This document shows, in pieces, positions 5,978-32,144 of a stretch of 64,000 nt of DNA; positions within the stretch are counted from its first letter, which is position 1; each line of letters starts with the position of its first letter. The stretch comes from an uncultured Gemmatimonadaceae bacterium (GTDB lineage Bacteria; Gemmatimonadota; Gemmatimonadetes; Gemmatimonadales; Gemmatimonadaceae), in contig CAWBOC010000001.1 in NCBI GenBank assembly GCA_963790305.1, positions 105,904-169,903 on the forward strand, in the 5' to 3' direction. The notes beneath the pieces were generated by a model that worked only from the letters and a program-made list of their open reading frames with translations, made no database searches and was not told the DNA's origin. The position numbers and the translations under genes were made by a program.

Positions 5978-6004
5978 TGGCCTAACCGCCAGGAACCCCT
6001 GTCG

Positions 6005-6298
6005 TCATTGGATCGGCTGGATGCAGGACGCGACCATCTCATCGACAGTCCCGTCGACCAGCACGCCCGCCGTCGCCATGTCCCCGGAGGATCGAAGATC
6101 GCCGACTCGCTGCCGAATCGCGTTCGCGATTTCGAAGTCAGCAACGCCTCGATCGCGAAGATCCTCGACGTACTCGCAGATCGCGTCGCGCAGGACTTCG
6201 AGCGAAGCGCGATGTTGAGCGTCGGCCGACAGGAGAGCCTGACGCAATGCGGGCGAGAAGGGATGCTCCTTCCCATTTCTACTGGATGCAGGTGACAC
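6005..6298 (-). CDS. Small helical hypothetical protein
   Basis: GGAGG RBS before GTG; LRDAICEYVEDLRDRG resembles the neighbouring ORF. Confidence 0.55.
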   Translation of the reverse strand: MSPASSRNGKEHPFSPALRQALLSADAQHRASLEVLRDAICEYVEDLRDRGVADFEIANAIRQRVGDLRSSGDMATAGVLVDGTVDEMVASCIQPIQ

Positions 6299-6421
6299 GG
6301 GACGCCTCCAAATGAGGCGTCGCCAGAAGCGCCTGTAGATTGTGCGACGTGCCACTCGGGAGCGTAGCGGGCTGGTGAGCGAACCGCGAATCAACCGCTC
6401 CCGATGCGAGGTCGATCGGCG

Positions 6422-6787
6422 CTAGGTGCCGTCCCCCGGCCGGCCGCGTCGTGCTGAAGCGGGCAGTATGGTCGCGGGGTAGTATGCCAGGATGGACCAG
6501 CGAATGATCTCGTCCATGAAAAGGTCCGCCGCGCGCGCGGCCACCGGATGCTCGAGGGACGGGTGCGACACCGTATGCTGCATGAAGGCACGCATGGTGA
6601 CGACCATCGCCTCGGGCAGCATTCCCTGCTGCTGAAGCTCCTCGACGCAGGCCCCAATGGCCGCGCGAAGCTCTGTTACCGCGGCGGCGTGCCTGCGAAA
6701 GGCGCTCTCGAGCGCGAGCTCGACGCGGGCGGAAACACGAGGCGTGAGCGCGAAAGGCGGTTCGCGAACGGCGATGGTGTTGGGCAA
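6422..6787 (-). CDS. Small helical hypothetical protein
   Basis: LRAAIGACVEELQQQGMLPEAMVV...W.ILAYY; start uncertain. Confidence 0.55.
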   Translation of the reverse strand: MPNTIAVREPPFALTPRVSARVELALESAFRRHAAAVTELRAAIGACVEELQQQGMLPEAMVVTMRAFMQHTVSHPSLEHPVAARAADLFMDEIIRWSILAYYPATILPASARRGRPGDGT

Positions 6788-7061
6788 CGGTCGGCTCCCG
6801 CCTTCGGAGGCGCCGCCAGAAGCGCCGTAATCATGCTCACGAGCGGGACGCGCGGAGCTGGTGACGACCCCCGCACCTATGGACCATAACGTCGGCGACT
6901 GAGCGGTACAAGAGCCGCGGCCGATGAGCTGCACTTCGCCGCACCTTCCTTGACGCATGTATCCGCCTGTCTATGTTGGACAGGTAGCCGGCCAAAGCCC
7001 GCCGCGTGCGTGCGACGTCCGTCGCATAAGCGCTTCGCGGTGAGCGAGATGGAGGTGGAGG

Positions 7062-7960
7062 ATGGAGAGACCGCGCGCATCCATCGCGATCGCCGCGACG
7101 ATCCTCAGTGTCCTGCTCGCGGGGGTGTTCCTCGCCGCCGGCGTTCCCAAGCTCATCGGCGCCGAGCCGCTGATTCTCCAGGCCGCCGCGATGCGCGGAT
7201 TCCCCGAGTGGATCCGCATCGTCGTCGCGATCGTCGAGGTCATCGGGGCAATCGGGCTTCTCATTCCGGCGACGTCCGCCGTTTCCGCAACGCTGCTCGC
7301 CTTGCTGATGGTTCCGGCGGCGATCACGCAGCGGGTCAGCGGAGAGCCAGGCATTCTCGTCCCGGCTGCGCTCTTCATCCTGCTCCTCATCCTCGCGGCG
7401 CTTCGCCAACCCGATGCCTTGCGCAGGATCTGGCGCGAAGCGCGCCACGCACCACACCCGGTATTTCGCGAAGGTGTGATCGCGGGTGTCCTCGGTGCCA
7501 CCGCGATCGCCGTGTGGTTCTTCATCGTCGATCTGGTCGCCGGCCAGACGCTGTTCACACCGACGACGCTTGGACGAGCGGTGTTCAGCGTGCTCGGGGC
7601 AGTGCCCGACAGCGAGAGCCCGATCATCCACGTGCTCGCGTACACCCTCTTTCACTACGCCGCGTTCATCACGCTCGGAATCGTCGCGGCGGCGATGGTG
7701 CGTCTCGCCGGTGACGAGCCGTCGGTGCTGCTCGGGTTCGTGATCCTGTTCGTCGCGTTCGAGGTGGGGTTCTACGCCTTCGTCGCGGTGCTGTCACAGG
7801 TGAGCCCGCTCGGCGAGCTGGCCTGGTGGCAGGTGATGGTTGGGAACCTGATCGCGGCCGCGGCAATGGGGATCTATCTTGCTGCGGAAACACCCCGTGC
7901 TGCGAGAGCAGTTCAGGCACTCGATGGACGCGCAGCCGTGGAGGACGACGAGGCTGAGGT
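7062..7960 (+). CDS. DoxX-family membrane protein with extra TM domain (3' end uncertain)
   Basis: FLAAGVPKL...EVIGAIGLLIP DoxX pattern; many TM helices; ORF runs into the repeat region. Confidence 0.7.
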
Positions 7961-8047
7961 GATCGAGGTGCGTCGAGGGGTCGAGGTGATCAAGGTCAGA
8001 CAGCAGCCTTGACTCCTCGATCATCCTCGACGCACCTCGACAACCTG
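7941..8047. repeat. Inverted array of ~9-nt units (GAGGTGATC / GATCATCCTC-like), hairpin between convergent genes
   Basis: Units visible in direct then inverted orientation. Confidence 0.65.
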
Positions 8048-8619
8048 CTTCTCTCCAGCCTTTCCCGTACCACCGGCCACTCGCGATCCAGAATGCTGTA
8101 CATGGCGGAGTCGCGAATTCGTCCCGACGCCGTGATCAGGTGTGCGCGCAGGATTCCCTCCTCCACCGCCCCGATCCTGAGAATCGCCGCGCGCGACTGC
8201 TGATTGAGTGCATCCGTCTTGAGCTCGACGCGGATGCAGCCGAGCACGTCGAACGCGTGGCGGAGCATCAGATACTTCGCCTCGGTGTTGCACGCCGTGC
8301 GCTGACGGTCGCGGCGTAGCCAGGTCCACCCGATTTCCACACGGCGGTTCGACATATCGATGTTGCCGAACCGCGTGCTGCCAATGATCTCTCCGGTCGA
8401 GGCATCCAGCGTCGCGAACGGCAGCGCGGTGCCGGCGCGCTGCGCCTCGAGCGCCGCGTCGACGTAGACTCGCATGTCCTCCAACGACGCGATCTGCGTC
8501 AGCGTCCACCGCCACAGCTCCTGATCGGCGGCTGCCGCGAACATCGCCTCCGTGTGCGCGAGCGTGAGCGGCTCGAGCCGAACATGACGGCCCGACAGCG
8601 TGACGGGACTGACCTTCAC
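7996..8619 (-). CDS. GNAT N-acetyltransferase (RimJ/RimL-like)
   Basis: VEIGWTW, NTEAKYLMLRHAF, RVELKTD.LN.QS.AAI.RIGA..EG. Confidence 0.88.
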   Translation of the reverse strand: MKVSPVTLSGRHVRLEPLTLAHTEAMFAAAADQELWRWTLTQIASLEDMRVYVDAALEAQRAGTALPFATLDASTGEIIGSTRFGNIDMSNRRVEIGWTWLRRDRQRTACNTEAKYLMLRHAFDVLGCIRVELKTDALNQQSRAAILRIGAVEEGILRAHLITASGRIRDSAMYSILDREWPVVRERLERSRLSRCVEDDRGVKAAV

Positions 8620-8647
8620 GGAATGTTCGGGTGGGGGTGGGCAAGGA

Positions 8648-8693
8648 AGGTAGACCAGGGTGCCGACGCGCGATCGACACCCCTGGTCTACCT
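8648..8693. promoter_or_regulatory. Near-perfect inverted repeat in the divergent promoter region upstream of the biosynthetic operon
   Basis: AGGTAGACCAGGGTGCCGA...TCGACACCCCTGGTCTACCT. Confidence 0.55.
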
Positions 8694-8797
8694 CTTGGTT
8701 CCTACGTCATCCCCGAAGCCCGACTACGTAGGTCGGCGGATGGGTGCGCCGGATTGACCAGGTCGCACATTGCTCCCATGCGGACCTGGAGTGGGCC

Positions 8798-9765
8798 ATG
8801 ACGTCGATCGGTGCGATCCGGTACGAGTTCCCCGCTGGAACGCGGTCTGTCCGCGAGCTGGCGGCGGCCGGTCTGCTCGAGTCGACCGCGGATACGCTCG
8901 AGTCGCTCGGCTTCGAGCAGGTGCGCGTTGCATGCGAGGAGTCGTCGTACTCCCTCGCCCTGCGCCGCGAGCAGCCGTCTCATCGAAGAATACGGCATCG
9001 ACCGCGACAGCATCGGGCTGCTGGTGTACGGCGGCGCGCCCGGGCGGGCTCGCGTTCTCCGCCGGCACGAACACTCGCCGGCGCGGCCGGCGACGTCGTC
9101 TCCGACCGCACGCTTCCGCTATCCCTCCACGCGACTTCAGTACGACCTCGGTCTCGAGCGCGCGGCGGTGCTCGCGGTCGACCAGCTCGCGTGCACCACG
9201 CTCTTCGGCGCCGTGCGCGTCGCTCGCGCCCTTTGCATCGCCGAAGGAATCGAGCGCGCGCTCTGCGTCTCCGCCGACATGTACCCGCCACTCGCCGGTC
9301 GTGAGGCGCTCTTCAACTGCACCGCCGACGCCGGCTGCGCGGTGCTCGTCGAGCGCGAAAGTCGCCACGCAACCGCATCGTCGCCGCGCGCACCGTCACC
9401 AAGGGCTACTACTGGGATGCCGACGCCATGCGCGACGAGATCGTCGCGTCGTACTTCCCGACCGCACGCCACGTCATCGCCGAAACGGTGCGCGATGCGG
9501 GATGGACGCTTGCCGACGTCGACTGGGTAATTCCGCATAACGTCAGCCGGCGCAGTTGGGAGATCCTGATGGGACTCGTCGGCGCTTCCCTCGCGCGCGC
9601 CTGTGGGCAGACAACATCGCGCGCGACGGACACACGCTCGCCGGCGACAACTTCATCAATCTGCACGATGCGCTGGCCTGCGGCGCGATCACCCCCGGCG
9701 ACCGGTTGCTGCTCTTCTCGTACGGCTACGGCGCGCACTGGACCGCTCTCGCGGTGGAGGCCTGA
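8798..9765 (+). CDS. 3-oxoacyl-ACP synthase III (FabH-like) family enzyme (several indels)
   Basis: Stitched motifs DQLACTT (Cys), ALCVSAD, VIPHNV, GHTLAGDN and LLLFSYGYGAHW. Confidence 0.85.
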
Positions 9766-9766
9766 C

Positions 9767-10869
9767 GTGAGCATCCCTCGCTCGATTCTGGTTACGGGCG
9801 CCACCGGGCCTCATCGGCCGCCGCGTGGTCGCCTCGCTTCTGCGCCGCACCAATGCGCCCAATCGTCGTTCTGGTCCGCGATCCGGCACGGTGGCAGGCG
9901 ACGGCGACGCACCTCGGCGCAGGCGCCGCTCGAGTGACGGCCGTGCGCGCCGACATCACGCTTCCCGCCCTCGGGCTGGACCTGCGGACAATGACGCGCT
10001 GTCTCGGCGCGCCATTCCTGCTCGTCCACAGTGCCGGTGACATCGTCTTCTCGCGATCGCTGGCTGACTCGCGCCGCGTGAACGTCGAAGGCACCCGCAA
10101 CGTCATCGAGCTCGCCTATTCATTCTCCGATGCACGGCTCGTTCACGTGAGTACGGCGTTCGCCGTTGGGCCGGCGCACCGGGTTCATCCCGCGAAGGCG
10201 CGGACGCTGCCGGTGAAGGCTGGGTGAACGCGTACGAGCAGTCGAAGCACGAGGCGGAGCGTGATCGTGCGCGAAAGCGGCCTCGAGTACGCGATCGCGC
10301 GGCCGAGCACGGTCGTCTGCGACGATGTCGCGCGGCGCGGTGACGCAGGTGAATGCCGTGCACCGCGCGCTGCGTCTCTATCACGCCGGGCTGGCGTCGA
10401 TGATGCCGGGTTCGGAGGACACGCCGGTCGACGTCATCCCCGCCGACTGGGTGGCGGATGCCATCGCGCGTCTGTCGCTCGCCGCGACTGCGTCGGGCCG
10501 CACGGTACATCTCTGTGCCGGCGACGGCGCGCTTCCCCTCGGCGCGCTGCTCGATCGCACGTACGCGGTCTGGTCGCGGCGATACGAGCTGGCGGCGCCG
10601 AGCGTGGCCCGCCCGCCCTGTCCGAATCTTGGCACATACCAGCTGTTCGAGCGGTCCGTGGACCTCGTGGGTGACGCGCGGCTCAAGCGCATCACGCGGT
10701 CGCTGTCGCACTTCGTGCCGCAGCTCGCGCTCGCCGAAGCGGTTCGACACGTCGCTCTCGCGCGAGCTGCTCGGCGAGACTGCGCCGCCGGTGAGCGCGT
10801 ATTGGGAGCGCATGCTCGAATGGCTTCTCGCTCTCGAACTGGAGCGCCGCGCTCCCGGAGGCTGCGTGA
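9767..10869 (+). CDS. Extended SDR / thioester or fatty-acyl reductase (NAD_binding_4 type; several indels)
   Basis: ILVTGATG, VHSAG, VNVEGTRNV, HVSTAF, NAYEQSK (YxxxK), ARPSTV, VDVIPADWVA. Confidence 0.85.
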
Positions 10870-10897
10870 GCGCGCGGAGCTCGGTTCGCAGGGTGCC

Positions 10898-11131
10898 ATG
10901 GTCGCGTGGCTGAACACTCGGTTCGCGTCCAAGGGCTTCGTCATCACTGCCGACACGCCACTCTTCGCGCGCGGGGTGATCGACTCGCTCGGCATTCTCG
11001 AGCTCATCGCCTGGACGGAAGTGAACACCGGGCGGATCGTGCCCGACGAGAGCATTCGCATGGACAACTTCGGCACCGTCGCGCGCATCGCGCAGACGTT
11101 CGTCGGGGAGGAAGCGCATGCGAACGGCTGA
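10898..11131 (+). CDS. Acyl/aminoacyl carrier protein (true start may be GTG 10866)
   Basis: DTPLFARGVIDSLGILELIAW contains the phosphopantetheine Ser; NFGTVARIA tail; ~77 aa. Confidence 0.88.
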   Translation: MVAWLNTRFASKGFVITADTPLFARGVIDSLGILELIAWTEVNTGRIVPDESIRMDNFGTVARIAQTFVGEEAHANG

Positions 11132-12038
11132 AGGCGTCGTGTCCGCGCTCCGGGCTCGCGGCGAGCTCTGGGATGTCGCCCCCGGGGATCGTCGGCCTGC
11201 GAGGGCGACGCGCTGGCGTTGCTGCGCTCGCTCGAGCACGAAATCATGCCTCGCTCGCGCAACGGGAGACGTCCGAAGACTGGGCGGCGCCGCCGGCGCT
11301 CGCGATGCGCACGCTGGAGCACGCCGAGTATTTCGCGTCGTTCCCGTTCTGGCTCACCGCGGCGTCGCATCTGCCTGACGACGAGTCGCGCGCTGGAGCG
11401 TATTGCGACCGACGATCGAGCCGATGCTCGGCGGCGCGGAGCGCGGCGCGCTGCACCGACGTGGCCCTGCCCCCGGCGCTCTGCTATCACGTCTTCGAGC
11501 GGCTCGCCGGGCGGCGCCTGACGACGACGGAGCTCGTGACACTCGCCGGCACCTGCTGGCGTCATGAGGGGTCGAGACTGGCTGCACTCGAGCGCCAATG
11601 GGCGTTCACAATGCGCGAGATCGTGTGCGTGGGAGTCTCGTCCGAAGAGTGGAGGACGTTTCGGCAGCGTGCGATGCGTCGCGCCGGCGCGCTGGCGTCG
11701 CGCCTCGATCTCGACGCCGGATTTCTCGTCGCAACCGATCCGTTCTTCGCGCCCACCGCGCGTGGGAAGGCAATCGTCCAGCGCGTGAAGGCGCTGAAGC
11801 ATGAGCTCGCGCTTCCCATTGGCGATGAGCGAAGCACCGCGGCCGCGTCGTTCAACAATCACGAGCAGTTCTTTGGCGAGGCCTTCGGCATCACGCTCGT
11901 CGACGGGTGAGGCGGCCTCGAGCGGGTGTGTCGCGTTCGGACTGGAGCGGTGGCTCCTCGCGTTTCTCGTTGCCCACGGCGTGGATCGCGCTGCCTGGCC
12001 GGTACGTCGATGCGACGTACGCGGAGGCCGAATCATGA
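11118..12038 (+). CDS. Seryl-tRNA-synthetase-like amino acid:[carrier protein] ligase (several indels)
   Basis: PALCYHVF, CWRHEG, LERQWAFTMREIV, ATDPFF, KHEL, ASFNNHEQFFG and SGCVAFGLERW; no tRNA-binding coiled coil. Confidence 0.85.
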
Positions 12039-12783
12039 GCACGTCCGCGCTCATTCGCCCGCACCTCTACGCGCGCTTCGCGTCCGCCGCCGAGCGCGGC
12101 GCGTGGTCCATCGACCGGGACATCGCCTGGCATGCCGTCGATCGCGACCGCGCGCTCGCTCAACCCGACATTCTGGTTGCGCTGCGCGACGCGGCCCTCA
12201 TCGAGTCGTTCCACCCGGTCAATCTCGCGCGATTTCTCCGCGTGCTGTGGGACGACGTCGACGGGTGCGCCGCGGTTGGGACTCGAAATGTACGAGGGGT
12301 TCAAGCACTTCCATGCCCTTCGGATGTACCTCGACATCGTCCGGTTCGAGCCCGCGATCACCGACGAGGAGCTGGTCGATCTGCGCCGCGCTGCGTTGAT
12401 CGTGATTTCGCACCGAGCGAGGTCATCGAGCACCTCGTCGAGTTCATGCTCAGCGAGCATCTCGCCGCGTACTTCTTTCGCCGGCTGAGCCGAGCGCGCG
12501 GAGGAGCCGGTGCTCGCCGATTTGCTGCGCTTCATCGCCGCCGACGAAGTGCGACACGCACAGAGCGCCTCCGACCTGATCGCAAAGCGAATCGCACGGG
12601 AACCGGCGCTCACGGATCGCGTCCTCGACCGCGGCGGTCTGCTTCCATCACTACGGCGAGGAGGCGGTGGGCGAGGTCCCCGTCGCCATGCCCGGCGATC
12701 CCATCGCCATCCGCACGTTCGCCGAGCGCATCGAGCGTCTCTGCGGGCGTCGTCTCGTCGATCATCTCAAGACCACGTTGTAA
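12035..12783 (+). CDS. Ferritin-like diiron protein 1 (desaturase/oxygenase-like; indels)
   Basis: WSIDRDIAW N-terminus; LIES, EGFKH, LSEH and ADEVRH helices. Confidence 0.75.
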
Positions 12784-12797
12784 CCGGGAGCCGACAC

Positions 12798-13343
12798 ATG
12801 CTCGACACCACCCGCGAGCTGGACCTCCTCAACTTCTATCGCGCCTCGGAGCTGCACGGGGGCCTCATCCTCGGCCAGATCGCGCGGCGCGTGCGCGACC
12901 CGCAACTCGTGCTCGCCCTTACCCGTCACGCGGCGGAGGAGGTCGTGCATGCGCAATGCTGGACGGAGACGATGATCGCGCTGGGCGGCGAATCCGCGCC
13001 CGGTGCGCGACACCTATCAAGCTCGGTACGCGCGCGCGCTTCGCGCCCCTGTATCGCTCTTTCACGTGCTGGCCCTCACCCAGGTCTTCGAGCGGCGCGT
13101 CTTCCGGCACTTCACGCTGCACTTCAGGCGTCCGGGGACGCATCCCGGCGATTTGCGCGACGCCTCAGACGCCTGCTCGATGAGGAGCGCGAGCACCTCT
13201 CCTGGGTGAAGACCTGGCTCGAGGAGCAGGAGAAGGTTCGTGGGCGCGAGCTCGTCGTGCGCACCATGCGGGAGTTCGCCGAAGCAGACGAGACCATCTA
13301 CGCGGAGCTGTGCGACGAGTACGGCTTCGCACGCGCGGCATGA
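12798..13343 (+). CDS. Ferritin-like diiron protein 2 (indels)
   Basis: YRASELHG, EEVVH, QVFERR and EEREH give the full E/ExxH/E/ExxH ligand set. Confidence 0.8.
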   Translation: MLDTTRELDLLNFYRASELHGGLILGQIARRVRDPQLVLALTRHAAEEVVHAQCWTETMIALGGESAPGARHLSSSVRARASRPCIALSRAGPHPGLRAARLPALHAALQASGDASRRFARRLRRLLDEEREHLSWVKTWLEEQEKVRGRELVVRTMREFAEADETIYAELCDEYGFARAA

Positions 13344-14530
13344 CCACCGCGACCATGGCAGTCGCCGTCTCGCGCGCGGAGCCCGACGTCGCGCGCCCGC
13401 TCGAGCGAGTACGCTCGCGGATGCGAGCGATGGCCCTCTCATGTTCGCCCAGGTCCGCGAGGATCCCTGCATCGAGATGCAGGCGCTCGCGCCCGCTTTG
13501 GGCGGTACGATCGTGGTCGTGAGCTCCGCCGGGTGTACCGCGCTGTCGTTGCTCGCCGCTGGTGCCCGTCACGTCGTCGGCGTGGACCTGTCACGCGCCC
13601 AAAACCATCTCGTCGAGCTCAAATGCGCGGCCATCCGTGCGCTCGCACGCCTGGACGCGATCGCATTCCTCGGCGGCTCAGCCCATGGCCGGCCTGTGCG
13701 CCGGCGTCGATTGTACGGCGTCCTCTCCCCCCTGCTCACCAACCACGCCCGCGCGTACTGGGACGCCAACCGCGATGCGATCGAGCGTGGCGCCTTGCGA
13801 GCGGGCAAAAGCGAACGGTTCATCTCGCTCGTTGCATCCGTCGTGGCACGGGCCGTCGTTCGCTCCGATGGCGTGGCGGCGTTGCTCAACGCTGACAGCG
13901 TTGAGGCACAACGGGACATCTTCGCGCACTCATGGGCTGGATGGCGGTGGCGCGCACTGTTCGCGGTGCTCCTCAATCGCTGGACGTTCTCGCGCGCCTA
14001 TCACCCTTCGTTCTTCGATCACGTCGAGAACCCGAGCTTTGCGCGACACTTTCGGCGCCTCGCCGAGCGAACGCTCACTGAGATTCCCGCACGCGACAAC
14101 TACTTTCTCCACGAGATGCTCACGGGCCGGTACCCCATGCACGAGCCCTTGGGTGTGCCACCCTATCTCACAGCCGCGAGGTGTGGCGCGGGGCGCCGAC
14201 GGCGCACGGACGCTGTCGCCTCGTCGACGGATCGCATGACCGAGTACCTCCGCTCCTGCCCGCCGCGGTCGATCAATGGTTTCGCCCTCTCCAACATTGG
14301 CGAGTGGCTCGATCGAAAGCGGACTCGACGCGCTCTTCAGCGAAGTGGCTCGCACCGCCCGCCCCGGAGCGCGCGTCGTCTTCAGGAATTTCGTTGGGTG
14401 GACCGAGGTTCCAGAGCGGTGGCGCAAGGTCATCGTCGAGCGGCCAGGCTATGGCGAGCGCTTGATACGCCGGGACCGTAGCCTGGTGCAGCATCGCGCC
14501 GTCGTGTGCAATGTGTGGAGCGCGGCGTGA
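13340..14530 (+). CDS. DUF3419 / BtaA-like SAM-dependent 3-amino-3-carboxypropyl transferase (indels)
   Basis: FAQVREDP, SSAGCTALSLL, VDLSRAQNHLVELK..AI, NYFL, LSNIGEW. Confidence 0.8.
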
Positions 14531-15660
14531 GCGCGACCGCCGTCGTGCCCGCGACACGGCTCGTGAGGCTCGCGACCGAGAGCGACAACGCGGCGCTCAT
14601 CGAGCTCGCGGCGTCGTGCCCCATGGAGGGCGACCTGTCGCTCCGCATCGATCGTGCGCCCGACTTCTTCGCGCTGAATCGTCTCGAGGGCGATCGGTGG
14701 AAGGTCGCGGTCGTCGACGGTCCACTCGGAGATCCCGTGGCGTGCGTCGCAACCGCCGAACGGCGCGTGTGGGTACACGGTCGCGCCAGAAACAATGGTC
14801 TACGCCGGCGACCTCAAGGTACACCCTGACTTTCGCGACACGCGCACCGCGGACGCGCTCGAGCGATTCGTCGCCGAGACGGCGCGCGAAGCGGGTGGAG
14901 ATCTCACGCCCGTTGTCTTGACCGTCCTCGCCGGAAACGCGGCAATGGAGCGGCGCGCCGCTGGCCCTCGCGGACTTCCGCGACTTCATCGCTTTGCCAC
15001 GCTGCACTCGTTTGCGATTCCGCTGCTGTGGCGGCGGGTTGTCGATGGCGCTCCCGATCTCCGAGTGCAGCGCGCGACGACGCGCGATCTGGAGGAAATG
15101 GCGGATCTATGGGCGGCGATCGCCCCGACGCGTCAGTTCTCGCATGTTCTGGACGCCGACGCGCTCGCCCGTTGGATTGCCGCCGCGCCCGGGCTCGAGA
15201 TCGACGACTACCTTCTCGCGCGCGACCTGCGCGGAAAGCTGCTGGGCTTCGTCGGCTATGGGATCAGCGCGCGCTCAAGACCCTTCGCGTGCTGCGCTAC
15301 TCGCCCGACGCTGTCGATTCTTCGCGGTCTCGTGACGTCGTAGCGCCCCTCGTCGGCGCAGCCGCCCCGCCGGAGATCGGCGCGCCGCTCCACTACGCCA
15401 ACGCCGTTCACCTCTGTGTTCCGGTGGACCGCGCGGACGTGCTGCGCACCCTCGTCCTCGGTGCCTACGACCGTCTGCGCGGCTCTGATCGCGTCTTCAT
15501 GAACGTCGCCCTCGATGCGCGCGAGCCGATCGTCGCTGCCCTTCGCGGATTGCTCGCCACGCCGACCGCCATTCACGCGTACGCCACCATGCCGCGCGGT
15601 GCGTGGGAGGGTCCGGCGCTCGATGACCGCCCACTGCATTTCGAAACCGCACTCGTCTGA
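14527..15660 (+). CDS. GNAT-fold acyltransferase (indels)
   Basis: VRLATESDNAAL...CPMEGDLSLRIDRAPDFFAL and YAGDLKVHPDFR; GTGA overlap with the upstream gene. Confidence 0.7.
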
Positions 15661-15667
15661 GGCGCAC

Positions 15668-16671
15668 ATGACCGCGAAGATGACCAGACTGGGCTATCAG
15701 AATGCGCTTCTATCGAGCGTTGCGTGCGGCGAACCGCCGCTACTCGCCAAAGCACGACATGGCGGCGCAGCCGTTTCCCGCCCTGATCCAGCTCCAGACG
15801 ATCAACGCCTGCAACGCGTCGTGCATCATGTGTCCCTATCCGCTGTACAAGAAGGAGTTCCCGCGCGGGACGGATGGAGGACGCGCTCTTCGAGAAGATC
15901 ATCGCCGAGATCGCGGAGCGGCCGGAGGTGCACACGTTCGTGCCAATGCTCCAGAACGAGCCCTTCCTCGACAGAAAGCTCTTCGACCGCATTGCGCGCT
16001 TCAAGCAGATCACGCACGGCCGCGTGGAGGTGGAGCTCGTCACGAACGGCGCGTTTCTTACCGCCGAAGCGATCGAACGCATTCGCGACGTCGAGCTCGA
16101 CGTCCTCGACATCAGTCTGGACGCCGTCAGCAGGCAGACATATGAGCGCATCCGCATCGGGCTCGACTTCGACGAGGTCATCGCCGGCGTCGAGCGTGTG
16201 ATCGATGCGCAGCTTCCGCATACCAGCGTGTTCGTGCGCCTGGTGAAGCTCCGCGACAACGCGCACGAGGTCCGCATGTTCGCGGCGCGGTGGCGGGCAC
16301 GAGGGATTCCCGTCTTCGTGTACACCGCGAACAATCGCGTCGGCGCACTTCCCGAGTTCGACGACAAGCTCCGGCTCACGCGCGAGCAGGTACCGCCGCT
16401 CCACCGCATCGGACGCCGGGCGGCGCGCGCCTGGCTCGGCCACTGCCCCGCCCCATTCGCGACGACGGACATCCTTCACGACGGCAGCGTGCTCCTCTGC
16501 ACGCACGATTGGGCGAGAAAGGAGATACTCGGCAACGTCCGCGACCAGACGATCGCCGAGATCTGGAATGGGGAGCGAATGCGCGAGATTCGTGCTGCCG
16601 TATATCGCCGCGAATACGACACCCTACCGGCCTGCCGCGGCTGTTCACTGTGGAAAGATGGCTGGGTTTGA
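15668..16671 (+). CDS. Radical SAM enzyme with SPASM/Twitch domain (indels)
   Basis: CNASCIMC (CxxxCxxC), NEPFL, TNG, ISLD; C-terminal CPAPF..DGSVLLC..GNV..IWNG..CRGC. Confidence 0.9.
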
Positions 16672-18900
16672 GCGTCTCGCGGCCGGGGTCGTGCACCGGC
16701 GTTGGCTCGTGGTGGCCGCCTGGTTGCTCGCCGTCGGAGCGCTCCTTCCTTTCGCCCGGACGATCGAAGACCGCCTAACCGTTGCTGCGCGGGTAGCGGG
16801 AAGTGAGTCTGCGGCGGTCGAGGAGGCTCTCGCCTCGCGATTCGGGTCGCCTTTCGCGCGCTGGGTCGTGCTCGTGGTTGCCGGCGTTCCGGGGCCCGAC
16901 ACGCCCGACGGTCGCGTTCTGTTGGAAAGCGCTGTGCGCACGCTCAACGATCATCCGCACGTGACACGTACCTTTTCGTATCTCGATGACGCCGATTCGT
17001 TGTTCGTCGGCGCGGCGGGAAGCGGGACGTTTCTCGTCGTCGGATTGGACCGGGGGAACGCGCGCGCCGAGCGAATGCTGCCGGGGCTGCGCACGGCGTC
17101 CAACCAGCTGGAGCGCGAGATCCGACGCTCACATCCCGAGGCGACCGTCCGATGGACCGGGGAAATCGCCCTCAACGCCGACCTGCGCGCCGCGAGTGCC
17201 GCAGCGGCAGAAGGCGCTGAGCGGCGTGCCCTTCCGCTGACGCTGGCGGTGCTGCTCCTTGCCTTTGGTGCGCTGGCGGCGGCAATGGTGCCCCTGTTCG
17301 CGGCAGCGGTCGCGGTGGGAGTCACGTTAGGCCTCGCTGCGGTCGCGTCGGCATGGTGGCCGCTGTCGATCGTACTCCAGAACGTGGTGTCGATGCTTGG
17401 CATCGGGCTCGGCATCGACTACGCCCTGCTCATGGTCAGCCGCTTTCGTGCGGCGCGGGCCGGTGGTTCCTCCGTTCATCATGCGGCCGTGGTCTGTGGC
17501 ACACGGGCCGGGCCCACGGTGGTGCTGTCGGCAGGAACGGTCGCGATCGGTTTTGCCGCGTTGCTTCTGGTCCCCCTGGATGAGATTCGCGCGATCGCCG
17601 TCGGCGGCGCTGCTCGTCACATCGATATCGGCGCTGGTCGCCGTAACGCTCGTTCCGGCCGCCCTCGCGATCTGGGGATCGCGGCTGGAGCTCGGGCGGG
17701 TGACGCGAGTCCGCGCGTCACGCGGCGAGGCGCGATGGGCGGGTTGGGCGCGCTTCGCGGTCACACGGCCGCGTGCCGTTCTCGCTGCCGGCGCACTTCC
17801 CATCTGCGCGCTGGCATGGCAGGCGACGCGACTCGACACGCATCTACCTCGCGGGGACTGGCTCCCGCGCGATATGGAGTCCGCTCGCGCCGTTCGCGAT
17901 CTCCAGGCGATGGAGCGTGGCAACGTGGTGCAGAGCATTCGCATCGTGCTCGAGCTGCCAACAGGCGTGACGGTGCTCGACCACGCCGGCTGGCGAGCGA
18001 TGTCGCGAATGACGGCGGCCCTTCTGCGCGAGCCGGAGGTTGCGCGCGTGCGCGCGCTTCCCATCATCGCGCCCGGCGCGCTTCCGGGGTCCATGCTGGA
18101 GTCGCTGCTGCCCACGGAGGTGAAAGCCACCTTCGTCTCGCGCGACGGCAGCTCGACGGTCCTCGAGGTCGTCCCCGCGAACGCCGCGTCGCCTAACGCA
18201 CTCGTCGACCTCGTCCTGCGGCTGCGCGAGTCGGGCGCGGCCGAGCTCAGCGGAGTGAAGGGTGCCCGAATGCTCGTGGGAGGCATTCCCGCCTTCAACG
18301 CCGATTATCGTGCCGCGCTCACGGGCCGCTTCTCCATGCTGGCGGCGGTCGTGATCGTCGCGACCCTGATCGTGCTCGAGCGTCGCCCTGCGCTCGATTC
18401 TGATCCCGCTCAAGGCCGTGCTGCTCAATCTCCTGTCGGTAGGCGCGGCATTCGGCGCAATGGTGCTGGTGTTCGGCGATGGCGTGGGCATTCAGCTCCT
18501 CGGCCATGATTCTCCGCCGGGCGGTACGTTCCCGATGATCCCGGTGCTCGTCTTCTGCATCGTCTTCGGTCTCAGCATGGACTACGAGCTCTTTCTCGTC
18601 TCGCGCATCATGGAGGCCCGACGCTCCGGCGCGAGCGATACCGACGCCATCGTCGAAGGCGTGTCGCGCACCGGTGGCGTCATCACCAGCGCGGCCGCCA
18701 TCATGATCGTCGTGTTTGGCGCCTTCACGCTCGGCGACGTGCTGCTCATACAAATGCTCGGCTTTGCGCTCGCCGTCGCGGTGCTCATCGATGCGACCGT
18801 CGTTCGCATGGCGATTGGACCGGCGCTCTTGCAGCTCGCCGGACGATGGAACTGGTGGCCAGGCTGTGACAGGCCCTTGGGGCCCAAACGGCTAGCTCGC
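16658..18900 (+). CDS. MMPL/RND family lipid exporter (indels; 3' end uncertain)
   Basis: [41 protein letters not shown] and LAGRWNWWP. Confidence 0.9.
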
Positions 18901-21900
18901 CCGCCGCGCCTCGCGGTCGTTCATACGCGCTTCTTCCCGTGGGTGGCGAGCGCTCTCGGTCACCGGCGCCCGGAGCGGTAACGTCACCGTGAACCGGGTG
19001 CCTTCGCCGGGCGTACTCTCCAGAGCGAGGTCGCCCCCGAGTAACCGCGCGAGCCGGCGAGCGACGCTGAGTCCGAGGCCGGTACCCCCAACCTGACGAG
19101 TCGCCGACTGCTGCACTTGCCAGAATGCCTCGAACACCTTGTCGGCGTTCTCCTTCGAGATGCCGATGCCGGTGTCCTCGACGACCACGACAATGCCGCC
19201 GTCGCGCTCCGCGAGCGTCAGCGTCGACGTGTCCGCGCTCGGTGAACTTCACCGCGTTCGAGAGCAAATTGAGGAGAATCTGGCGCACTTTGCCGGCGTC
19301 GGTTTCCATCGCAATCGCATGGTTCGGCACGCGCGTGACGAAGTCGAGCCCCTTCTCCCGCGCCATGGGCTCGATGAGCACGATGGTATCGCGGACGAGC
19401 GCGACCGCATCCGCCGGAGCCCGGACGACCGCCTCGCGACCCGCTTCCATTCGGGAGAAGGTGAGAATCTCCTCGACGATCTCGAGCAAGTGGCGAGACG
19501 CGGTCCGGATCCGCTGCACGTGACCATTCGTCTGCGACGGAATGGCCGTCGGCACGCCCATGAGCAGCAGCTCGGCGTATCCGATGATCGCGTTCAACGG
19601 CGTGCGCAGCTCGTGCGACATGACGGCGAGGAAGTCGCTCTTGGCACGGCTGGCAATGAGCGCCGTCTCGTACAGACGGGCGTTGTCCACCGCCATCGCC
19701 GCGCGCCGCGCAATCTCCTGAGCGAGCGCGAGCTCCTCATCGCCGTACCGCCGTCTCGACTCGGCGCTGACGAGAGTGAGGACGCCGAGCATGCGATCGC
19801 GTCCTTCGATGGGAACGGAGACGTACGAAACCGGTGTGATTCCCTCCATGGTGCTCGCGCGGTGATCATCGGGCGCTTCGAGATCGTGCCTCTGCGGTGA
19901 TACGACCGGGACGAGCTCCGCGTCCCCGGTGCGTGCCACGTGTCCAGGCCCCGACGGCGCGTCGAGCGATATCGGATTGCGAGTGCTGAGCTGCCTGACG
20001 CGCTCCGCCTTGGCGCGGTCGGCGTGCGCCACCGCCACGCGGTGCAATGTGTCCGGATTGGATTCGTCGATGACGTCGACGACACACCAGTCGGCCAGCG
20101 TCGGTACCACCAGCCGCGTAAGCTCCGTGAGCGCCTGGTCGCCATCGAGCGTCGAGGCCAGCACGCGGCTCGCCTCCATGAGAAACCGCTGCATCTCCTC
20201 GGCGCGCTTGCGGTCGGAGATGTCGCGCCAGTATCCGGTGAAGCAGGGCGCTCCCGCGGCGGGCACGCGCGTAATCGTCAGCTCGACGGGAAACTCGGTT
20301 CCGTCCGATCGGAGGCCACGAAGCTCGATGCGTCGGCCAAGGAATCGGGTTTCGCCGGTCTCGAGGTGCGCGTGCAGCGCCGCGCGGAAGACCTCCCGAG
20401 GCGACGGCGGAAGGATCAGCTCCCCCATTTCCCTTCCCACGGCCTGCGACGGCGGCCACCCAAAGGTTCGCTCGGCGGCCGGGTTCCAGTCGGTAATGCG
20501 TCCCGACGCGTCGAAAGAGATGACGCAGTCGATCGCACTGTCAATGACGGCGCGCGTGCGCGCCTCGCTCTCGCGCACCGCGAGCTCCGCCCGGCGGCGC
20601 TCGAGGAACTGACCGGCCTGACTGCCGATGCTCTGCGCCATTTGCAGCAGCTCGTCGTCCGGGTACCGGATCTCGGTACTGAAGAATTCCATCACGCCCA
20701 CGACGCGTCCGGCATCGATGAGCGGGAACGACAGCGCGGCATGCAGGTCACGGTCCGCGAATAGCGCGGCGCGGGTGAATCCCGTCTCGCGCGCGATGTC
20801 GGGAATCCAGAGCGGCGCGGCCGCGGCCCAGGTTTGCCCGGGAATGCCGACCCCGCACTCGAACGCGATGGCGCGATTCGCCTCCGCGAACGCTTCGTCG
20901 TGCTCGTGGTCGAAATGAATGTCCGCGCACCGCAGGACCTGTCGCTGCGCATCGAGCGCCCAGTGGAGCCCCACGTCCCAGCCAAGACTATCGCAGATGC
21001 CGCGCAATATGCGCGGCGCCGCTTCGGACATGCCGCTCGATTCGGCGAGCGTCTGCGTGACGACGAACTGGGCCGCGAGCCGGCGTTCCGCTCGCTTGCG
21101 CATCCCAATGTCGATGAGCACTCCCCGCAGCTGACACGGATGACCGTGTTCGTCGCGCGCTCCATAGACCATCTCGCGCATCCACGTCACGCGACCATCC
21201 GCGCTCAGCAGGCGATACTCGCTCTCACTGTGATCGCACGATTCGGCGACGTCGGCGAGGTGCTCGCGCACGTGCTCCCGATCGTCGGGGTGCACGATCC
21301 GCTCGACGTACGCCCCGGGCTCGAGCCAGACGTCGGCGGGCCATCCCAGCATCGATTCGGCTCGGCGATTCACGAACGTGAAATCCTGGGTGCGTGCGTC
21401 GGCTTCCCAGACGATGGCATCAATGCCTTCGACCAGATCGCGATAGCGGTGCTGCGCATCGACCGCGGCCGTCCGCGCGCCGCGCTCGGCATCCAGCAGC
21501 CGGGCCTGGGCGATCGCCGTCGCCACACGGTCGGCGACGAGCTGTAGGAGACGAATGTCATCCTCGGTGAAGTGCCGAGACGCGTCCGTGCCGATCTCGA
21601 GAACGCCTAACACACGCCCTTCGACGAGCAAGGGTGCCGCCGCCAACGAGCTGAACCGTCGGAGTGCTTGACGCACGCCAGGCATCGCCGCGACATCATC
21701 GACCGCGGCGGCCTCGCGGCTGAGCGCAACCTGGCCCGAGAGTCCCTCGCCCACCGACATCCGCACGTGCTTCGTTACCTCCTCCTCGAGGCCATTGGAG
21801 GCACATGCCACGAGCGTCTTGCCCGTCCTCCGCAATTTCGAGCACCGTCGCGTAGTCCGCTGCCAGGTGCTTGCGAATGCGCGAGAGGAGCTCGCGCAGC

Positions 21901-22383
21901 AGTGCGTCGAAGGAGAGCGTCGCGAGCGCCGGATCGGTGACGGCTCGGAGGGCGCGGATGCGCGCAGTCGCCGCGTCGGCACGATCGCTGGCGTCCCACC
22001 ACTCGCGGCGCAGCCACGCGGCTCGACGATGCGTCACGGCCCCCGCCATCATCGCCACCAGCAATGCCCCGAGCTCAGCGACGACCGTTAGGCGATCGTT
22101 GGCGGCATACTGAAGCACCGAGCCGGGAACGCTGCGCGCGAGCACGACCCACGCGCCCACCACCAGCCCGCCAAGCAACCCCACGCGGAGGCCACCGAGC
22201 GCGGACGCGAGCGCGAGAATCGCGATGAGCCCCGCCGAGGTCGCGGGGAGCTCCATGCCGCGCATGCGCAACCAGGCGGCGAGTGTGACCGCCGTCACCA
22301 CGAGCCCGAGAGCCGCCGCACGCACACTCAGCCGCGTTGCCGGCGTTGCGATGACGGGAGCGTCGGAGAAAGAGTCCTGCGTA
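18892..22383 (-). CDS. Membrane-anchored GAF/PAS/GAF/PAS/GAF sensor histidine kinase (indels)
   Basis: [13 protein letters not shown]-box, [16 protein letters not shown] and GGTGLGL. After an AGGAGG RBS the apparent start reads ACG (possible base error). Confidence 0.88.
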
Positions 22384-22428
22384 CGCTCCTCCTGGAGAGA
22401 GGTCCGGTTTTGGCCGCGCTAGGCGCGC

Positions 22429-25400
22429 TCAACCAGTAAACAGCTCTCTCTCTCGCACAAAATCTGCCAACTCACCGCGGGAACCCACGCCAAGCTTCGT
22501 AAACACGTTGGTCAAATGCGTGCTCACCGTGCGCGGTGAGATGTTGAGCGCTCGTCCGATCTCCTTGTTCGACTTGCGAGCGGTGACCAGGCGCACGATT
22601 TCGAGCTCGCGCGCGGTGAGTCCCTCGGTCCCGGCCAGCGCCGCGCGTGCCGGAGGCCGCGCACCGAGATCGCGGAGCTGCTGGCGCGCCAGCGCGAGCT
22701 CGCGGTCGGCGCCAAGCCTAACGAACACATCGTGCACGCGTCGGAGCTCGCGCGTGGCCCCCTCGCGATCGCCCGACTCGGCCAGCACGCGCGCCAGCTG
22801 CCGTCGCACCCGCGCGGCATCGGCGACCACCGGCACCGCCTCGAGCGCGGCCGCCGCGTTCCCGAGAAGCACGATGGCGCGATCCGTTTCGCCGCGCAGC
22901 ATTGCGACCAGTGCCTCGCACGCGTCGGCCCACGCCAGACCCGCGCGTTGACCGAGTCGTTCAGAATCACGCCGCAGCCGCTGACCGATCTTCTCCGCGC
23001 GCCGCAGATCACGCGCCTCGAGGGCGGACTCGGCGAGAATGGGCAACAGTCGATGCACCGCCCACACCACCGCGCCCGCCTTATCGGCGACGGCGAGCCC
23101 TGCCTCGCCAACGCGGATCGCCTCGCCGAAATTGCCGGTGAAGAGATGGTACGCCGCGAGGCCGATGTGGGCCGGCACGACCGAGTGGACGTCGCTCGGA
23201 CGCTCCGCGCCGCGTGATGCGCCCGACAGCTCCCATGCCTCGTCGATATATGCCTTCGCCCGCTCCATCTCGCCGCGACCGAGGTGCATGATCGCGCTCC
23301 ACACCAGGAGGCGCGGGAAGGGCGCACGAAGGCCGACACTACGTCCAAGGGCGATGGTGCGCTCCGCGAGCGCGAGGCCCGTCTCCCATTCCCCCGTCGC
23401 CGACGCGAGCTCGATGGCGATCTCCGCCGTCCACGCGCGGAACACTGGGGAGTCGAGCTCCTCGGCAAGCCGTTCCGCTTCCGCGAGATGGCGCGCGCAC
23501 GCCTCCGACGCTCCGGTGAGGCCTTCGAGAGTCGCCAGCGCCCACTGCGCGAGCCATTCCAGGACGCGTTGTCCCGACGCGGCAGCCAGCTCACGCGCGC
23601 TCTCGGCATGCTTGTACGCGAGCTCGGTACGACCCGTCCAGAGATAAAAGAGGAGCTGCGTGCGATGCGCGCGCGCGAGCAGCGACGCGTCGCCTAACCG
23701 CTCGGCGATTGCAATCGCTTCCGCCATCTCGCGCTCGGCATCCGCGGCGCGCCCCAGCTCCTGGAGGCACATTCCCTTGGCGAGACGTACCCGCGCCGTC
23801 ACACTCTCGGCTCCCGCCGACGTCGCGGCGTTCAGCGCGGCGTCATAGCGCTCGAGCGCCTCGTCGTGGCGTCCGCGCCAGAAGGAGGCGAGCCCGAGGC
23901 GGCGCTCGATGTCCGCCAGGCGCGCGAGGTCGTTCGAGCGTTGCGCGTGATCACGCGCCCGCTCCCAAAGCGCCACCGCCGCGTCGTACTCTCCGAGACG
24001 CTGTCGCGCGCGCGCGAGACCCTCGATAATCGCCATCTCCGCCGCGCCGTCGACAGCGCCATTTCGCGTGAGCTCGAGCGCAGCGGTGAGGTAGCTGGCC
24101 GCCTCACGATTGGCGTGCTTCGCCAGCGCCTTGCGACCGGCAAGAGAGAGATAGCGCGTCGCCTTGGGCGCGACGTCGCGCGCATCGGCGCGGGCGAAAT
24201 GGTAGGCGAGCTCATCGGCGTGCTCGTCGCCGGCGCTGCCGTAATGACGCTCGAGCGCGTCGGCGACGGTCGCGTGCAGCAGGCGCGCGCGGGCGAGCCC
24301 CATCTCCTGGTAGATCACGTCGCGGAGAATGGGGTGGGAGAAGTCGTAGACGATCTGATCGTTCTCCCGCCGCTCATCGAGGATGTGCTGCGCACGAAGC
24401 TCATCGATTGCCTCGACGAGGCCCGCGCGTGGCATTCCGACCACCGCGTCGAGCGCGTCGTAGGGGGCGCGCGTCCCGATCACCGCCGCCATCGCGGCGA
24501 CGCGTTGTGCGTTCGCGGAGAGCCGCTCGAGCCGCGTCACGACCGCTTCGCGTATCGTTCGTGGGAGATCGAGGTCGGCGATTTCCCATCCATGCCAGCT
24601 TCCATCGCGCTCGTAGAGACGGCCGGATCCTACGAGCGCCTTGAGCGTCTCTTCGACGAAGAAGGGGTTGCCGCGCGTCCACCCGTAGAGCAACGCGGCG
24701 AATTCGCGTGCGACTGCATCCGCCACGCCGAAGACCGCGTGCACGAGCTCGTCGGTGGCCGCGCGCGAGAGCGGGCCGAGGTGATGCTCGCGGGCGGCTC
24801 CAAGACCTACCAGCGACTGCCGAAGCGAGATGAGCGACGCTGATCGCTCCGGGGCTGACAAGTTGTACGTTCCGACGACCAGCACGCGCGACGTGCCGAG
24901 CTGGCGAGCGGTGAAGTGCAGCATCTCGAGCGAGGACTCATCCGCCCAGTGCAGATTCTCGAGGATGAGCAACAGCGGACGCTTCTGCGCGAGCCGCGAC
25001 AGGAGCTGGGCGAAGTTCCAGAGCAGACGTGTCTTGACCTCGCTCCCCTGATCGCTCGCACCTCGAATCGGCGCCTCGCCGGTGGCGAGCAACGGAAAGA
25101 GATGTGAGAGCTCCGAAACGGCGCCTCGCGTCAACACCGAGAGGGCTGCGGGGTCGAGCGTGCGTAGCAGAGGAAGCAGCGCGTCTGTAAAGAGGGCATA
25201 GGGAACGCCGACCTCCACGGGATAGGCGCGACCGATCGCGACGAGCCAGCCCCGCTTGGTGGCACGCTCGGCGGTCGCGAGGGCGAGTCGCGTCTTGCCC
25301 TGCCCGCCGTCTCCCTCGAGGAGCAGCGTCGTCCCCCGCCCCTTCTCGGCCGCGTCGAGGAGGCTGGCGAGCATGGACAGCTCGGTCGAGCGCCCGACGA

Positions 25401-25479
25401 GGGGGAGCGAAGGGAGTGCGCTCCCCGCTCCAGTTGGGGGTCTCAAGTGCGAATGGGGCGAGCCGGTGGTCGGGTCCAT
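22429..25479 (-). CDS. AAA-ATPase/TPR/LuxR-HTH transcriptional regulator (MalT/LAL-like)
   Basis: LVGR, GDGGQGKT, ENLHWAD, GNPFF and a C-terminal LTARELEIV..SNKEIG..ISPRTVSTHL HTH. Confidence 0.92.
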   Translation of the reverse strand: MDPTTGSPHSHLRPPTGAGSALPSLPLVGRSTELSMLASLLDAAEKGRGTTLLLEGDGGQGKTRLALATAERATKRGWLVAIGRAYPVEVGVPYALFTDALLPLLRTLDPAALSVLTRGAVSELSHLFPLLATGEAPIRGASDQGSEVKTRLLWNFAQLLSRLAQKRPLLLILENLHWADESSLEMLHFTARQLGTSRVLVVGTYNLSAPERSASLISLRQSLVGLGAAREHHLGPLSRAATDELVHAVFGVADAVAREFAALLYGWTRGNPFFVEETLKALVGSGRLYERDGSWHGWEIADLDLPRTIREAVVTRLERLSANAQRVAAMAAVIGTRAPYDALDAVVGMPRAGLVEAIDELRAQHILDERRENDQIVYDFSHPILRDVIYQEMGLARARLLHATVADALERHYGSAGDEHADELAYHFARADARDVAPKATRYLSLAGRKALAKHANREAASYLTAALELTRNGAVDGAAEMAIIEGLARARQRLGEYDAAVALWERARDHAQRSNDLARLADIERRLGLASFWRGRHDEALERYDAALNAATSAGAESVTARVRLAKGMCLQELGRAADAEREMAEAIAIAERLGDASLLARAHRTQLLFYLWTGRTELAYKHAESARELAAASGQRVLEWLAQWALATLEGLTGASEACARHLAEAERLAEELDSPVFRAWTAEIAIELASATGEWETGLALAERTIALGRSVGLRAPFPRLLVWSAIMHLGRGEMERAKAYIDEAWELSGASRGAERPSDVHSVVPAHIGLAAYHLFTGNFGEAIRVGEAGLAVADKAGAVVWAVHRLLPILAESALEARDLRRAEKIGQRLRRDSERLGQRAGLAWADACEALVAMLRGETDRAIVLLGNAAAALEAVPVVADAARVRRQLARVLAESGDREGATRELRRVHDVFVRLGADRELALARQQLRDLGARPPARAALAGTEGLTARELEIVRLVTARKSNKEIGRALNISPRTVSTHLTNVFTKLGVGSRGELADFVRERELFTG

Positions 25480-27518: not shown

Positions 27519-27750
27519 ACACCGTCCCATTGCATAGGAACATGAAGCATTTCAACTCCGAGTACAGAAGCGCAGCGCCGCCGTCTTGTCACTTTCCCTA
27601 CATCCGCGAAACGCTTACCCTAACCACGACTCGACCGTACTTCTGTTGACAAGTTGTTCCCCCCCGTCGCATATAAGCCACACTATCACCCGCATCTATC
27701 CCCGCGTCGCCCTAGTCGTCGCGGGCCCCCACCCTTTCGCGGGAGGTCCT

Positions 27751-30684: not shown

Positions 30685-30686
30685 CC

Positions 30687-32081: not shown

Positions 32082-32107
32082 CGCAGGCGACCGCCGTTAG
32101 GCTGGCA

Positions 32108-32144
32108 GAAGCCTCCGGGATTCAGTAAATCCCGGGGGCTTTTT
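32108..32144 (+). terminator. Rho-independent terminator after susD
   Basis: AAGCCTCCGGGA...TCCCGGGGGCTTTTT. Confidence 0.7.

Follow-up and report, generated by a model that had tools for sequence, protein, structure and literature searches.

A separate subfamily of amino acid:[carrier protein] ligases, with glycine as predicted substrate, encoded in a conserved ten-gene operon of soil bacteria

The DNA analysed here, referred to below as the window, is a stretch of 64,000 nucleotides (positions 105904–169903 of contig C1) from a genome of 4.3 Mb, 13 contigs and 66% GC; the nearest named homologues of the window belong to Gemmatimonadaceae. It carries ten genes in the order: β-ketoacyl synthase III (KAS III)-like enzyme, reductase, carrier protein, amino acid:[carrier protein] ligase, two diiron proteins (FER1 and FER2), DUF3419 protein, GNAT protein, radical S-adenosylmethionine (SAM) protein and MMPL transporter. 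The ligase and its carrier had been noticed in an initial annotation made from the sequence alone, which did not recognise the surrounding operon of ten conserved genes. The ligase–carrier pair by itself is a known kind of system; the subfamily to which this ligase belongs is new.

The 212-aa in-frame core of the ligase is sufficient to match Bll0957 (PDB 3MEY) at a level that chance does not approach (E 1e-24), and 1092 homologues of it were found among 4204 candidates, the nearest of which are 302 aa long and 80–88% identical. The best PDB match of a profile of 40 homologues is again Bll0957 (3MEY, E 5e-54), followed by the type-2 seryl-tRNA synthetases (SerRS) 2CIM and 3W3S (E 3e-20 and 2e-9). 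Residues C120, E165 and C267 of the ligase family, conserved among close homologues, align with chain residues C151, E196 and C299 of 3MEY, which we take to be the Zn-binding C131, E176 and C279 of native Bll0957. Residues R146, E148, R157, F161 and R274 are conserved in 118–119 of the 119 close homologues, and 22 probed positions are nearly invariant in the same set. Amino acid:[carrier protein] ligases are described as Zn-dependent in the accessible part of an earlier paper (PMC9437257). The 119 listed homologues mostly measure about 300 aa, with a few shorter or partial ones, and the alignment starts at the core, which indicates that a tRNA-binding domain is missing; a separate canonical SerRS of 424 aa is encoded elsewhere in the same genome. 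The assignment to the amino acid:[carrier protein] ligases, proposed earlier from class II motifs 2 and 3, the Zn ligands and the lack of a tRNA-binding arm, is thus upheld, and the motifs named at that time are all present on the forward strand (ALCYH at 11476, WRHEG at 11557, MREIV at 11611, SGCVAFGLERW at 11921 and, in the carrier, IDSLG at 10979).

With Pfam, no family was found at E 0.01 either for the ligase fragments of the window or for the intact ligase of the related locus L030, so the identification rests on the PDB and NCBIfam comparisons. The intact L030 ligase scores 186 bits against NF005479/PRK07080, below the cut-off of 357 bits, whereas three proteins from related genomes (L027, L028 and L029) score 398–460 bits and exceed it. 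A phylogenetic check suggested in the initial annotation was carried out in part, as a quick tree of 81 rows that did not include Bll0957, Atu2573 or type-2 (methanogen-type) SerRS. In this tree the window protein clusters with a Gemmatimonadota group and a group rich in actinomycetes (SH-aLRT 98), and the three PRK07080 members are placed separately; the canonical 424-aa SerRS of the genome falls outside on a branch 3.8 long, a placement that long-branch effects make unsure. The ligase thus resembles the known amino acid:[carrier protein] ligases in kind and, as judged from sequence comparison, forms a separate subfamily. Both subfamilies occur within the same order, L027, L028 and L029 being true PRK07080-type ligases. 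A further 91 relatives (370–425 aa; P0127–P0146 and P0153–P0295) have an N-terminal extension of about 90 aa; the alignment of their profile to Methanosarcina-type SerRS from residue 139 suggests that they retain part of the type-2 N-terminal region, and they may possibly be evolutionary intermediates. They include a few carrier fusions (PP-binding in 3 of 50).

The gene upstream of the ligase encodes a stand-alone carrier protein, whose phosphopantetheine serine is invariant in 37/37 aligned carriers. Among the 61 close loci (L030–L090), the carrier position could be assessed in 60: the carrier lies directly upstream of the ligase in 59 (by tblastn) and forms the C-terminal domain of the upstream gene in the other. 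The overlap of the two genes, noted before for the window, where the ligase ATG at 11118 precedes the end of the carrier stop (11129–11131) by 14 nt, measures exactly 14 nt in 48 of 58 loci. Natural fusions are found as well. The 26 homologues longer than 371 aa comprise four carrier–ligase fusions and six ligase–FER1 fusions (P0121–P0126, 553–602 aa); one ligase–FER1 cluster gathers 13 sequences across JGI, ENA and Logan, and carrier–ligase reading frames are present at two genome loci (L025 and L026). Since the fusions recur, they are unlikely to be artefacts of one-base errors at gene overlaps. The pairing of ligase and carrier as cognate partners, at first suggested by the overlap, gains support from adjacency in 60/60 loci and from the fusions. 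These and other locus counts describe conservation and are not a statistical test, because kin are not independent.

Some variant arrangements of the pair were also observed. In L060 (8852–10882) and L133 (8638–10406), the gene directly upstream of the ligase encodes a fusion of a left-handed beta-helix acyltransferase with a carrier domain, and the KAS/reductase operon is absent; rho is the next gene in L060. In L132 (8743–11834), a distant ligase has as its neighbours a left-handed beta-helix acyltransferase, a GNAT protein with a weak N-myristoyltransferase (NMT) match and a sugar epimerase. Locus L050 (9028–10918) has a minimal trio of phosphopantetheinyl transferase (PPTase), carrier and ligase, the other operon genes being absent.

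The features of the operon are listed in Table 1. Counted only where the contig leaves room, the close loci contain the KAS gene in 56/58, the reductase in 57/59, FER1 in 55/57, FER2 in 46/54, DUF3419 in 43/49, GNAT in 40/45, radical SAM in 15/41 and MMPL in 33/37 cases. A PPTase gene is present in 28 of the 61; in the window there is none beside the operon, but two genes of the ACPS family are present in the genome. Nineteen more distant loci, mostly from actinomycetes but also from Gammaproteobacteria and Acidobacteriota, combine an AurF-family protein with the carrier and the ligase, nearly always together with KAS, reductase and FER2 and often with fatty acyl-AMP ligase (FAAL, 16/19), PPTase, an ICMT/PEMT-type methyltransferase and MMPL; the AurF-family gene stands beside carrier and ligase in all 19. 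Cultured hosts of this related cluster include Streptantibioticus, Streptomyces, Micromonospora, Kineosporia and Gandjariella. The two types differ in three slots, the occupants of which never occur together. The diiron slot is filled by FER1 in 62 and by AurF in 19 of 91 loci, and the acyl slot by GNAT in 43 and by FAAL in 16 of 91. In the SAM-enzyme slot, the 82 core loci have DUF3419 (46), PEMT/ICMT (17) or Methyltransf_20 (3), which are three unrelated families, or none of them (16); the latter loci are mostly cut by contig ends, and L097 among them has a weaker DUF3419 match. The distribution of the cluster is patchy. It is present in five of eight genomes of the same genus, and among 301 sampled genomes of the phylum the close subfamily was found in 5 and any relative in 21.

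Table 1. Genes of the ligase operon in the window (window coordinates).
Feature	Position	Strand	Basis and remarks
KAS III-like enzyme	8798..9765	+	frameshifted in window; residues Cys131, His276, Asp281
NAD_binding_4 thioester/fatty-acyl reductase	9768..10869	+	YEQSK at 10233; frameshifted in window
Carrier protein, stand-alone, acyl/peptidyl carrier protein (ACP/PCP) type	10866..11131	+	Pfam PP-binding E 0.0014, just under the Pfam cut-off; phosphopantetheine Ser 10985–10987
Amino acid:[carrier protein] ligase, type-2-SerRS-derived class II core	11118..12038	+	302 aa in relatives; Zn ligands Cys 11482, Glu 11617, Cys 11927; motif-3 Ala 11933
FER1 (diiron protein 1), acyl-ACP-desaturase/R2lox-like fold	12035..12783	+	predicted-fold comparison
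FER2 (diiron protein 2), small ferritin-like	12798..13343	+	conserved E18/E48/H51/E98/E129/H132
DUF3419 (BtaA-family) SAM-dependent enzyme	13340..14530	+	Pfam E 2.5e-52
Tandem GNAT, glycylpeptide NMT-like	14516..15660	+	profile match to human NMT1; GNAT clusters in ESM Atlas
Radical SAM/SPASM protein, accessory	15668..16671	+	family matches; 15/41 loci
MMPL-family lipid transporter	16655..18981	+	family matches

In the KAS III-like protein, Cys131, His276 and Asp281 are invariant (37/37); the Asn of FabH aligns with His276, and the first His of FabH is replaced by Gln in 12/37 sequences. FabH proteins score above ChlB3 and CerJ against this protein. KAS III enzymes of the CerJ/ChlB type are said to have a Cys-His-Asp triad and to catalyse acyl transfer. 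By analogy with these, the invariant His276 and Asp281, the replaced Asn and the Gln found for the first His in some sequences suggest that the enzyme is probably a non-decarboxylating acyltransferase. The reductase matches PRK07201 (E 1.6e-37) and Thioester-redct (E 1e-29), both below cut-off, and is nearest to fatty-acyl and thioester reductases. The first metal motif of FER1 is atypical (E-G-x-x-H). Its predicted structure (pLDDT 91) appears nearest to stearoyl-ACP desaturase (Z 18.6, RMSD 3.6, 239 residues aligned), followed by R2lox (Z 17.0) and AurF (Z 13.0). No match to the Pfam AurF family (PF11583) was found for FER1, and the ESM Atlas lists both AurF-like clusters (28% of members) and desaturase clusters; FER1 was rejected as an AurF orthologue, as the two profiles do not align (prob 0.1). 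For FER2 (pLDDT 93), the top fold matches, aldehyde-deformylating oxygenases included, are tied near Z 17–18, and a function is not indicated by them. The DUF3419 profile has no meaningful relative in the PDB, and the GNAT profile weakly matches glycylpeptide N-myristoyltransferase (human NMT1, E 1.6e-4). Taken with the FAAL of the distant loci, the MMPL, ICMT/PEMT and BtaA families are lipid signals and point to a lipid-related product.

From the family, catalytic residues, carrier linkage and gene set, which are read from the sequence, we infer a pathway of loading, N-acylation, reductive release, tailoring and MMPL transport. In its first step, the ligase would adenylate a small amino acid at the Zn site and transfer it to the neighbouring carrier, at the phosphopantetheine thiol, with no tRNA involved; such tRNA-free loading is very likely. 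The loaded amino acid would be glycine. The ligase and carrier would then stand in place of the adenylation–thiolation (A–T) didomain of a non-ribosomal peptide synthetase (NRPS), and the KAS III-like enzyme would serve as the condensation step, N-acylating the tethered glycine. The reductase would release an N-acyl amino-aldehyde or an amino alcohol of the N-acylethanolamine type, the two diiron enzymes would oxidise carrier-bound or released intermediates and the SAM enzyme would cap the product. In Gemmatimonadota, the product may further gain an aminocarboxypropyl group and a second acyl chain through the DUF3419 protein and the NMT-like GNAT; the lipid would be moved by MMPL. These steps jointly, as a route from glycine to an N-acyl amino-alcohol lipid, are put forward tentatively, at somewhat less than even confidence.

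Several points weigh against this route. The direction of the KAS transfer is not fixed by sequence. FAAL and a second carrier are missing from the 61 Gemmatimonadota-type loci, and the acyl donor is therefore assumed. The ligase–FER1 fusions and the presence of AurF in 19/19 actinomycete-type loci fit N-oxidation of the free glycyl-carrier at least as well. According to the alternative built on this last point, the glycyl-carrier first undergoes N-oxidation by FER1 or AurF, and the resulting oxime or nitronate is O-methylated by the SAM enzyme; the KAS-like enzyme then moves the N-oxidised unit onto a fatty alcohol or aldehyde that the reductase supplies, giving an N-oxidised lipid of the enteromycin/althiomycin type. 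A precedent with glycyl-PCP, a diiron oxygenase and an O-methyltransferase is given in the available portion of PMC9967187, and ferritin-like N-oxygenase chemistry is known (PMC12154687, as far as its accessible text goes); the presence of one SAM enzyme per cluster, drawn from three families, is consistent with the same scheme. The fold of FER1, however, is nearer to acyl-ACP desaturase than to AurF, and the FER1 and AurF profiles, as stated above, do not align. BtaA is described as an aminocarboxypropyl transferase, not a methyltransferase (PMC10685587, accessible part), and the NMT-like enzyme suggests a free amine as acceptor. This alternative is considered rather unlikely, and the N-acylation route is retained as the working proposal.

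The amino acid itself had been left open in the initial annotation; a prediction is possible from motif 3. The residue two places beyond the third Zn ligand is Ala in Bll0957 (CVAFG) and Gly in type-2 SerRS (CAGLG; 3W3S). Ala is kept in 118/118 close homologues that have a residue there (119 scanned), and likewise in 56/57 close loci, 19/19 actinomycete-type loci and 6/6 carrier-fused forms; the three PRK07080-type relatives (L027, L028 and L029) all have Gly. Bll0957 is reportedly glycine-specific, its A281G variant being said to accept Ala and Ser; a literature search for that mutant study came back empty. Because the motif-3 Ala is as in Bll0957, glycine is predicted, and with the A281G variant taken into account it is the likely substrate. 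Several observations count against the prediction: it hangs on this one position and on the unconfirmed A281G mutant, the wider family is mixed there (41 Ala and 48 Gly of 91 long forms) and a nearby strand reads AASFN, as against CMSFN in Bll0957. The same assembly line could instead be fed with Ala, Ser or another small amino acid and yield lipids of the acyl-alaninol or acyl-serinol type. Known family members take Gly, Ala or Ser (accessible parts of PMC9437257 and PMC5370406), the clade is separate from the PRK07080/Bll0957 type and the residue at position 240 is smaller (Ala for Met); yet essentially all members share with Bll0957 both the Ala in motif 3 and the FxMRE Met, and loading of an amino acid other than glycine is regarded as unlikely.

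The gene for the ligase was initially taken to encode about 300 aa, which holds for its relatives (about 302 aa). In the window its motifs are split over frames: the pair and its motifs exist, but the ligase is not an intact open reading frame (ORF), and the frameshifts had been missed. Read from ATG 11118, the gene runs into a stop after 86 codons (11378); its core is found in a second frame, that of ORF 10906–11910, which is closed by TGA 11908–11910, and motif 3 is in a third; the entry for the window ligase in the protein collection is a 245-aa product (P0001). Insertions at 10881 and 10889 shift the carrier GTG at 10866 out of the reading frame, and the in-frame body of the carrier starts at ATG 10898 (77 aa). 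Relative to intact L030, the ligase has ten insertion events of 12 nt in all (11187, 11205, 11251 (2 nt), 11388, 11416, 11431, 11648 (2 nt), 11657, 11909 and 12006), and subtracting these from its 921 nt leaves 909 nt, the length of the gene in the relative. In the syntenic block of 12.9 kb, insertions of one base (64) outnumber deletions of one base (15). At sites away from the indels (246 codons), the ligase has a dN/dS of 0.054 and no in-frame stops; across all ten operon genes dN/dS is 0.02–0.20 and nonsense codons are lacking. Four soil runs (three samples), which contain relatives and not the source DNA (word share ≤0.12), yielded short-read contigs that omit letters at the same places as the window insertions. 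One such contig of 798 nt, covering 10834–11630, has nine gaps, equal to the number of inserted letters counted there against L030; the 12 rows listed of the 69 indel rows in this comparison all lie outside the ligase. Another crosses the 11909 insertion ungapped, but only eight letters from its end, and is uninformative.

The excess of insertions, purifying selection without in-frame stops and the same letters missing from related short-read contigs are the reasons for regarding the broken frames, with high confidence, as assembly errors. What speaks against this is the local concentration of the insertions: the operon block, at 5.6 per kb, is the densest of 26 compared blocks, most of which have about 1 and one other 2.9 per kb. 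Real decay of the operon in the source strain therefore keeps some weight, and none of the soil runs is the source sample. Bacterial gene decay is deletion-biased, whereas the indels here are strongly insertion-biased (72 against 20); they also continue upstream of the operon (6070–7000) and thin out in its last gene, and contigs of related strains lack the inserted letters. With the intact coding sites added, decay appears very unlikely. The insertion-dense patch extends over 6000–15900, genes from 18785 on being mostly intact, and other genes inside the patch can be expected to show false frameshifts.

A role as a tRNA-charging SerRS paralogue (a resistance copy or a seryl-tRNA supplier, VlmL-like), to which the class II SerRS-type core and the JGI annotation 'seryl-tRNA synthetase' on many homologues would point, is rejected as extremely improbable, given the missing tRNA-binding domain, a score of the intact L030 ligase against type-2 SerRS (NF002120) of 76 bits with a cut-off of 611 and a length of 302 aa against about 500–530 aa, the separate canonical SerRS, and the constant carrier partner with its fusions.

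Among known systems, the closest are Bll0957 and Bll6282 of Bradyrhizobium (Gly) and Atu2573 of Agrobacterium (Ala; PDB 3MEY and 4H2S–4H2Y), which have in common with the ligase the truncated type-2 SerRS core and the Cys-Glu-Cys Zn site. Motifs 2 and 3, CVAFG, the adjacent carrier gene and a DPFF-helix-KxE segment, at the site swapped in the hybrid 4H2W, are likewise found in the ligase family, which differs in scoring under the PRK07080 cut-off and in its separate clade. The neighbourhoods are different, too. In the accessible part of PMC2922099, Atu2573-type genes are accompanied by a redox enzyme, an uncharacterised ORF and glycan genes, a context for which a role in surface sugars was proposed; here the neighbours are KAS III, reductase, diiron, SAM-enzyme and MMPL genes. 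Type-2 SerRS (2CIM, 3W3S) has the same Zn-dependent class II core but possesses an N-terminal tRNA-binding domain and Gly in place of Ala two residues past the third Zn ligand. The cassettes for enteromycin carboxamide, althiomycin and akazaoxime combine carrier-tethered glycine, the amino acid predicted here, with a ferritin-like oxygenase and a SAM methyltransferase (PMC9967187, accessible part); they employ NRPS A domains and polyketide synthase/NRPS modules, whereas the operon has an aminoacyl-tRNA-synthetase-like ligase, KAS III, a reductase and a second diiron protein. With betaine-lipid synthesis by BtaA/BtaB, in which BtaA attaches SAM-derived homoserine to diacylglycerol (PMC10685587, accessible part), the operon shares a DUF3419 member; a BtaB-like gene is not among its ten genes, and DUF3419 alternates with methyltransferases of two other families.

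N-acyl amino alcohols are made by NRPS lines of the columbamide type, with condensation, adenylation, thiolation and reductase (C-A-T-R) domains, through FAAL/ACP supply, amino-acid loading, acylation, reductive release, diiron tailoring and methylation. In the operon these functions are all allotted to stand-alone proteins of different families, and no NRPS domain is present. No characterised cluster or product of this operon type was found in literature searches, the coverage of which left out most subscription journals.

The region 8400–9000 yielded neither a sigma-70-like promoter nor a terminator, and no RNA holder was among those listed for the operon. Convergent on the operon end, a large GAF/PAS histidine kinase and a LuxR-AAA-TPR regulator occupy 18785–25479 (−). 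The stretch 27586–37748 (+) contains ordinary genes: a SusC-like TonB receptor with a lipoprotein-like ORF next to it, a K+/H+ antiporter, patatin, macro-domain and FMO-like genes. The Rfam scan of the window gave a tRNA as its only match; a tRNA-Lys(TTT) lies at 45366–45438 (−).

The role of amino acid:[carrier protein] ligases 'remains unknown', according to the accessible part of PMC9437257. The subfamily described here offers a compact full gene set, a glycine prediction and cultured hosts of a related cluster, which makes the question of their role directly testable; as the ligase–carrier pair is of a known kind, the main interest lies in the operon and in the testable prediction of glycine. 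The ligase very probably attaches a small amino acid, for which glycine is the most likely candidate, to the neighbouring carrier and so opens a conserved pathway of ten genes that leads, in soil bacteria, to a lipid-like product. It is proposed, as a possibility still short of probable, that the ligase/carrier, the KAS III-like acyltransferase and the stand-alone reductase form an NRPS-free line that acts on glycine in the A–T, C and R roles and, with three interchangeable slots (diiron, SAM enzyme and acyl supply), produces undescribed phosphorus-free or N-oxidised glycine-derived lipids in Gemmatimonadota, actinomycetes and other soil phyla. If true, an amino acid:[carrier protein] ligase would for the first time be tied to a defined product and a biological role; the proposal could be tested in cultured strains of the Streptomyces group.

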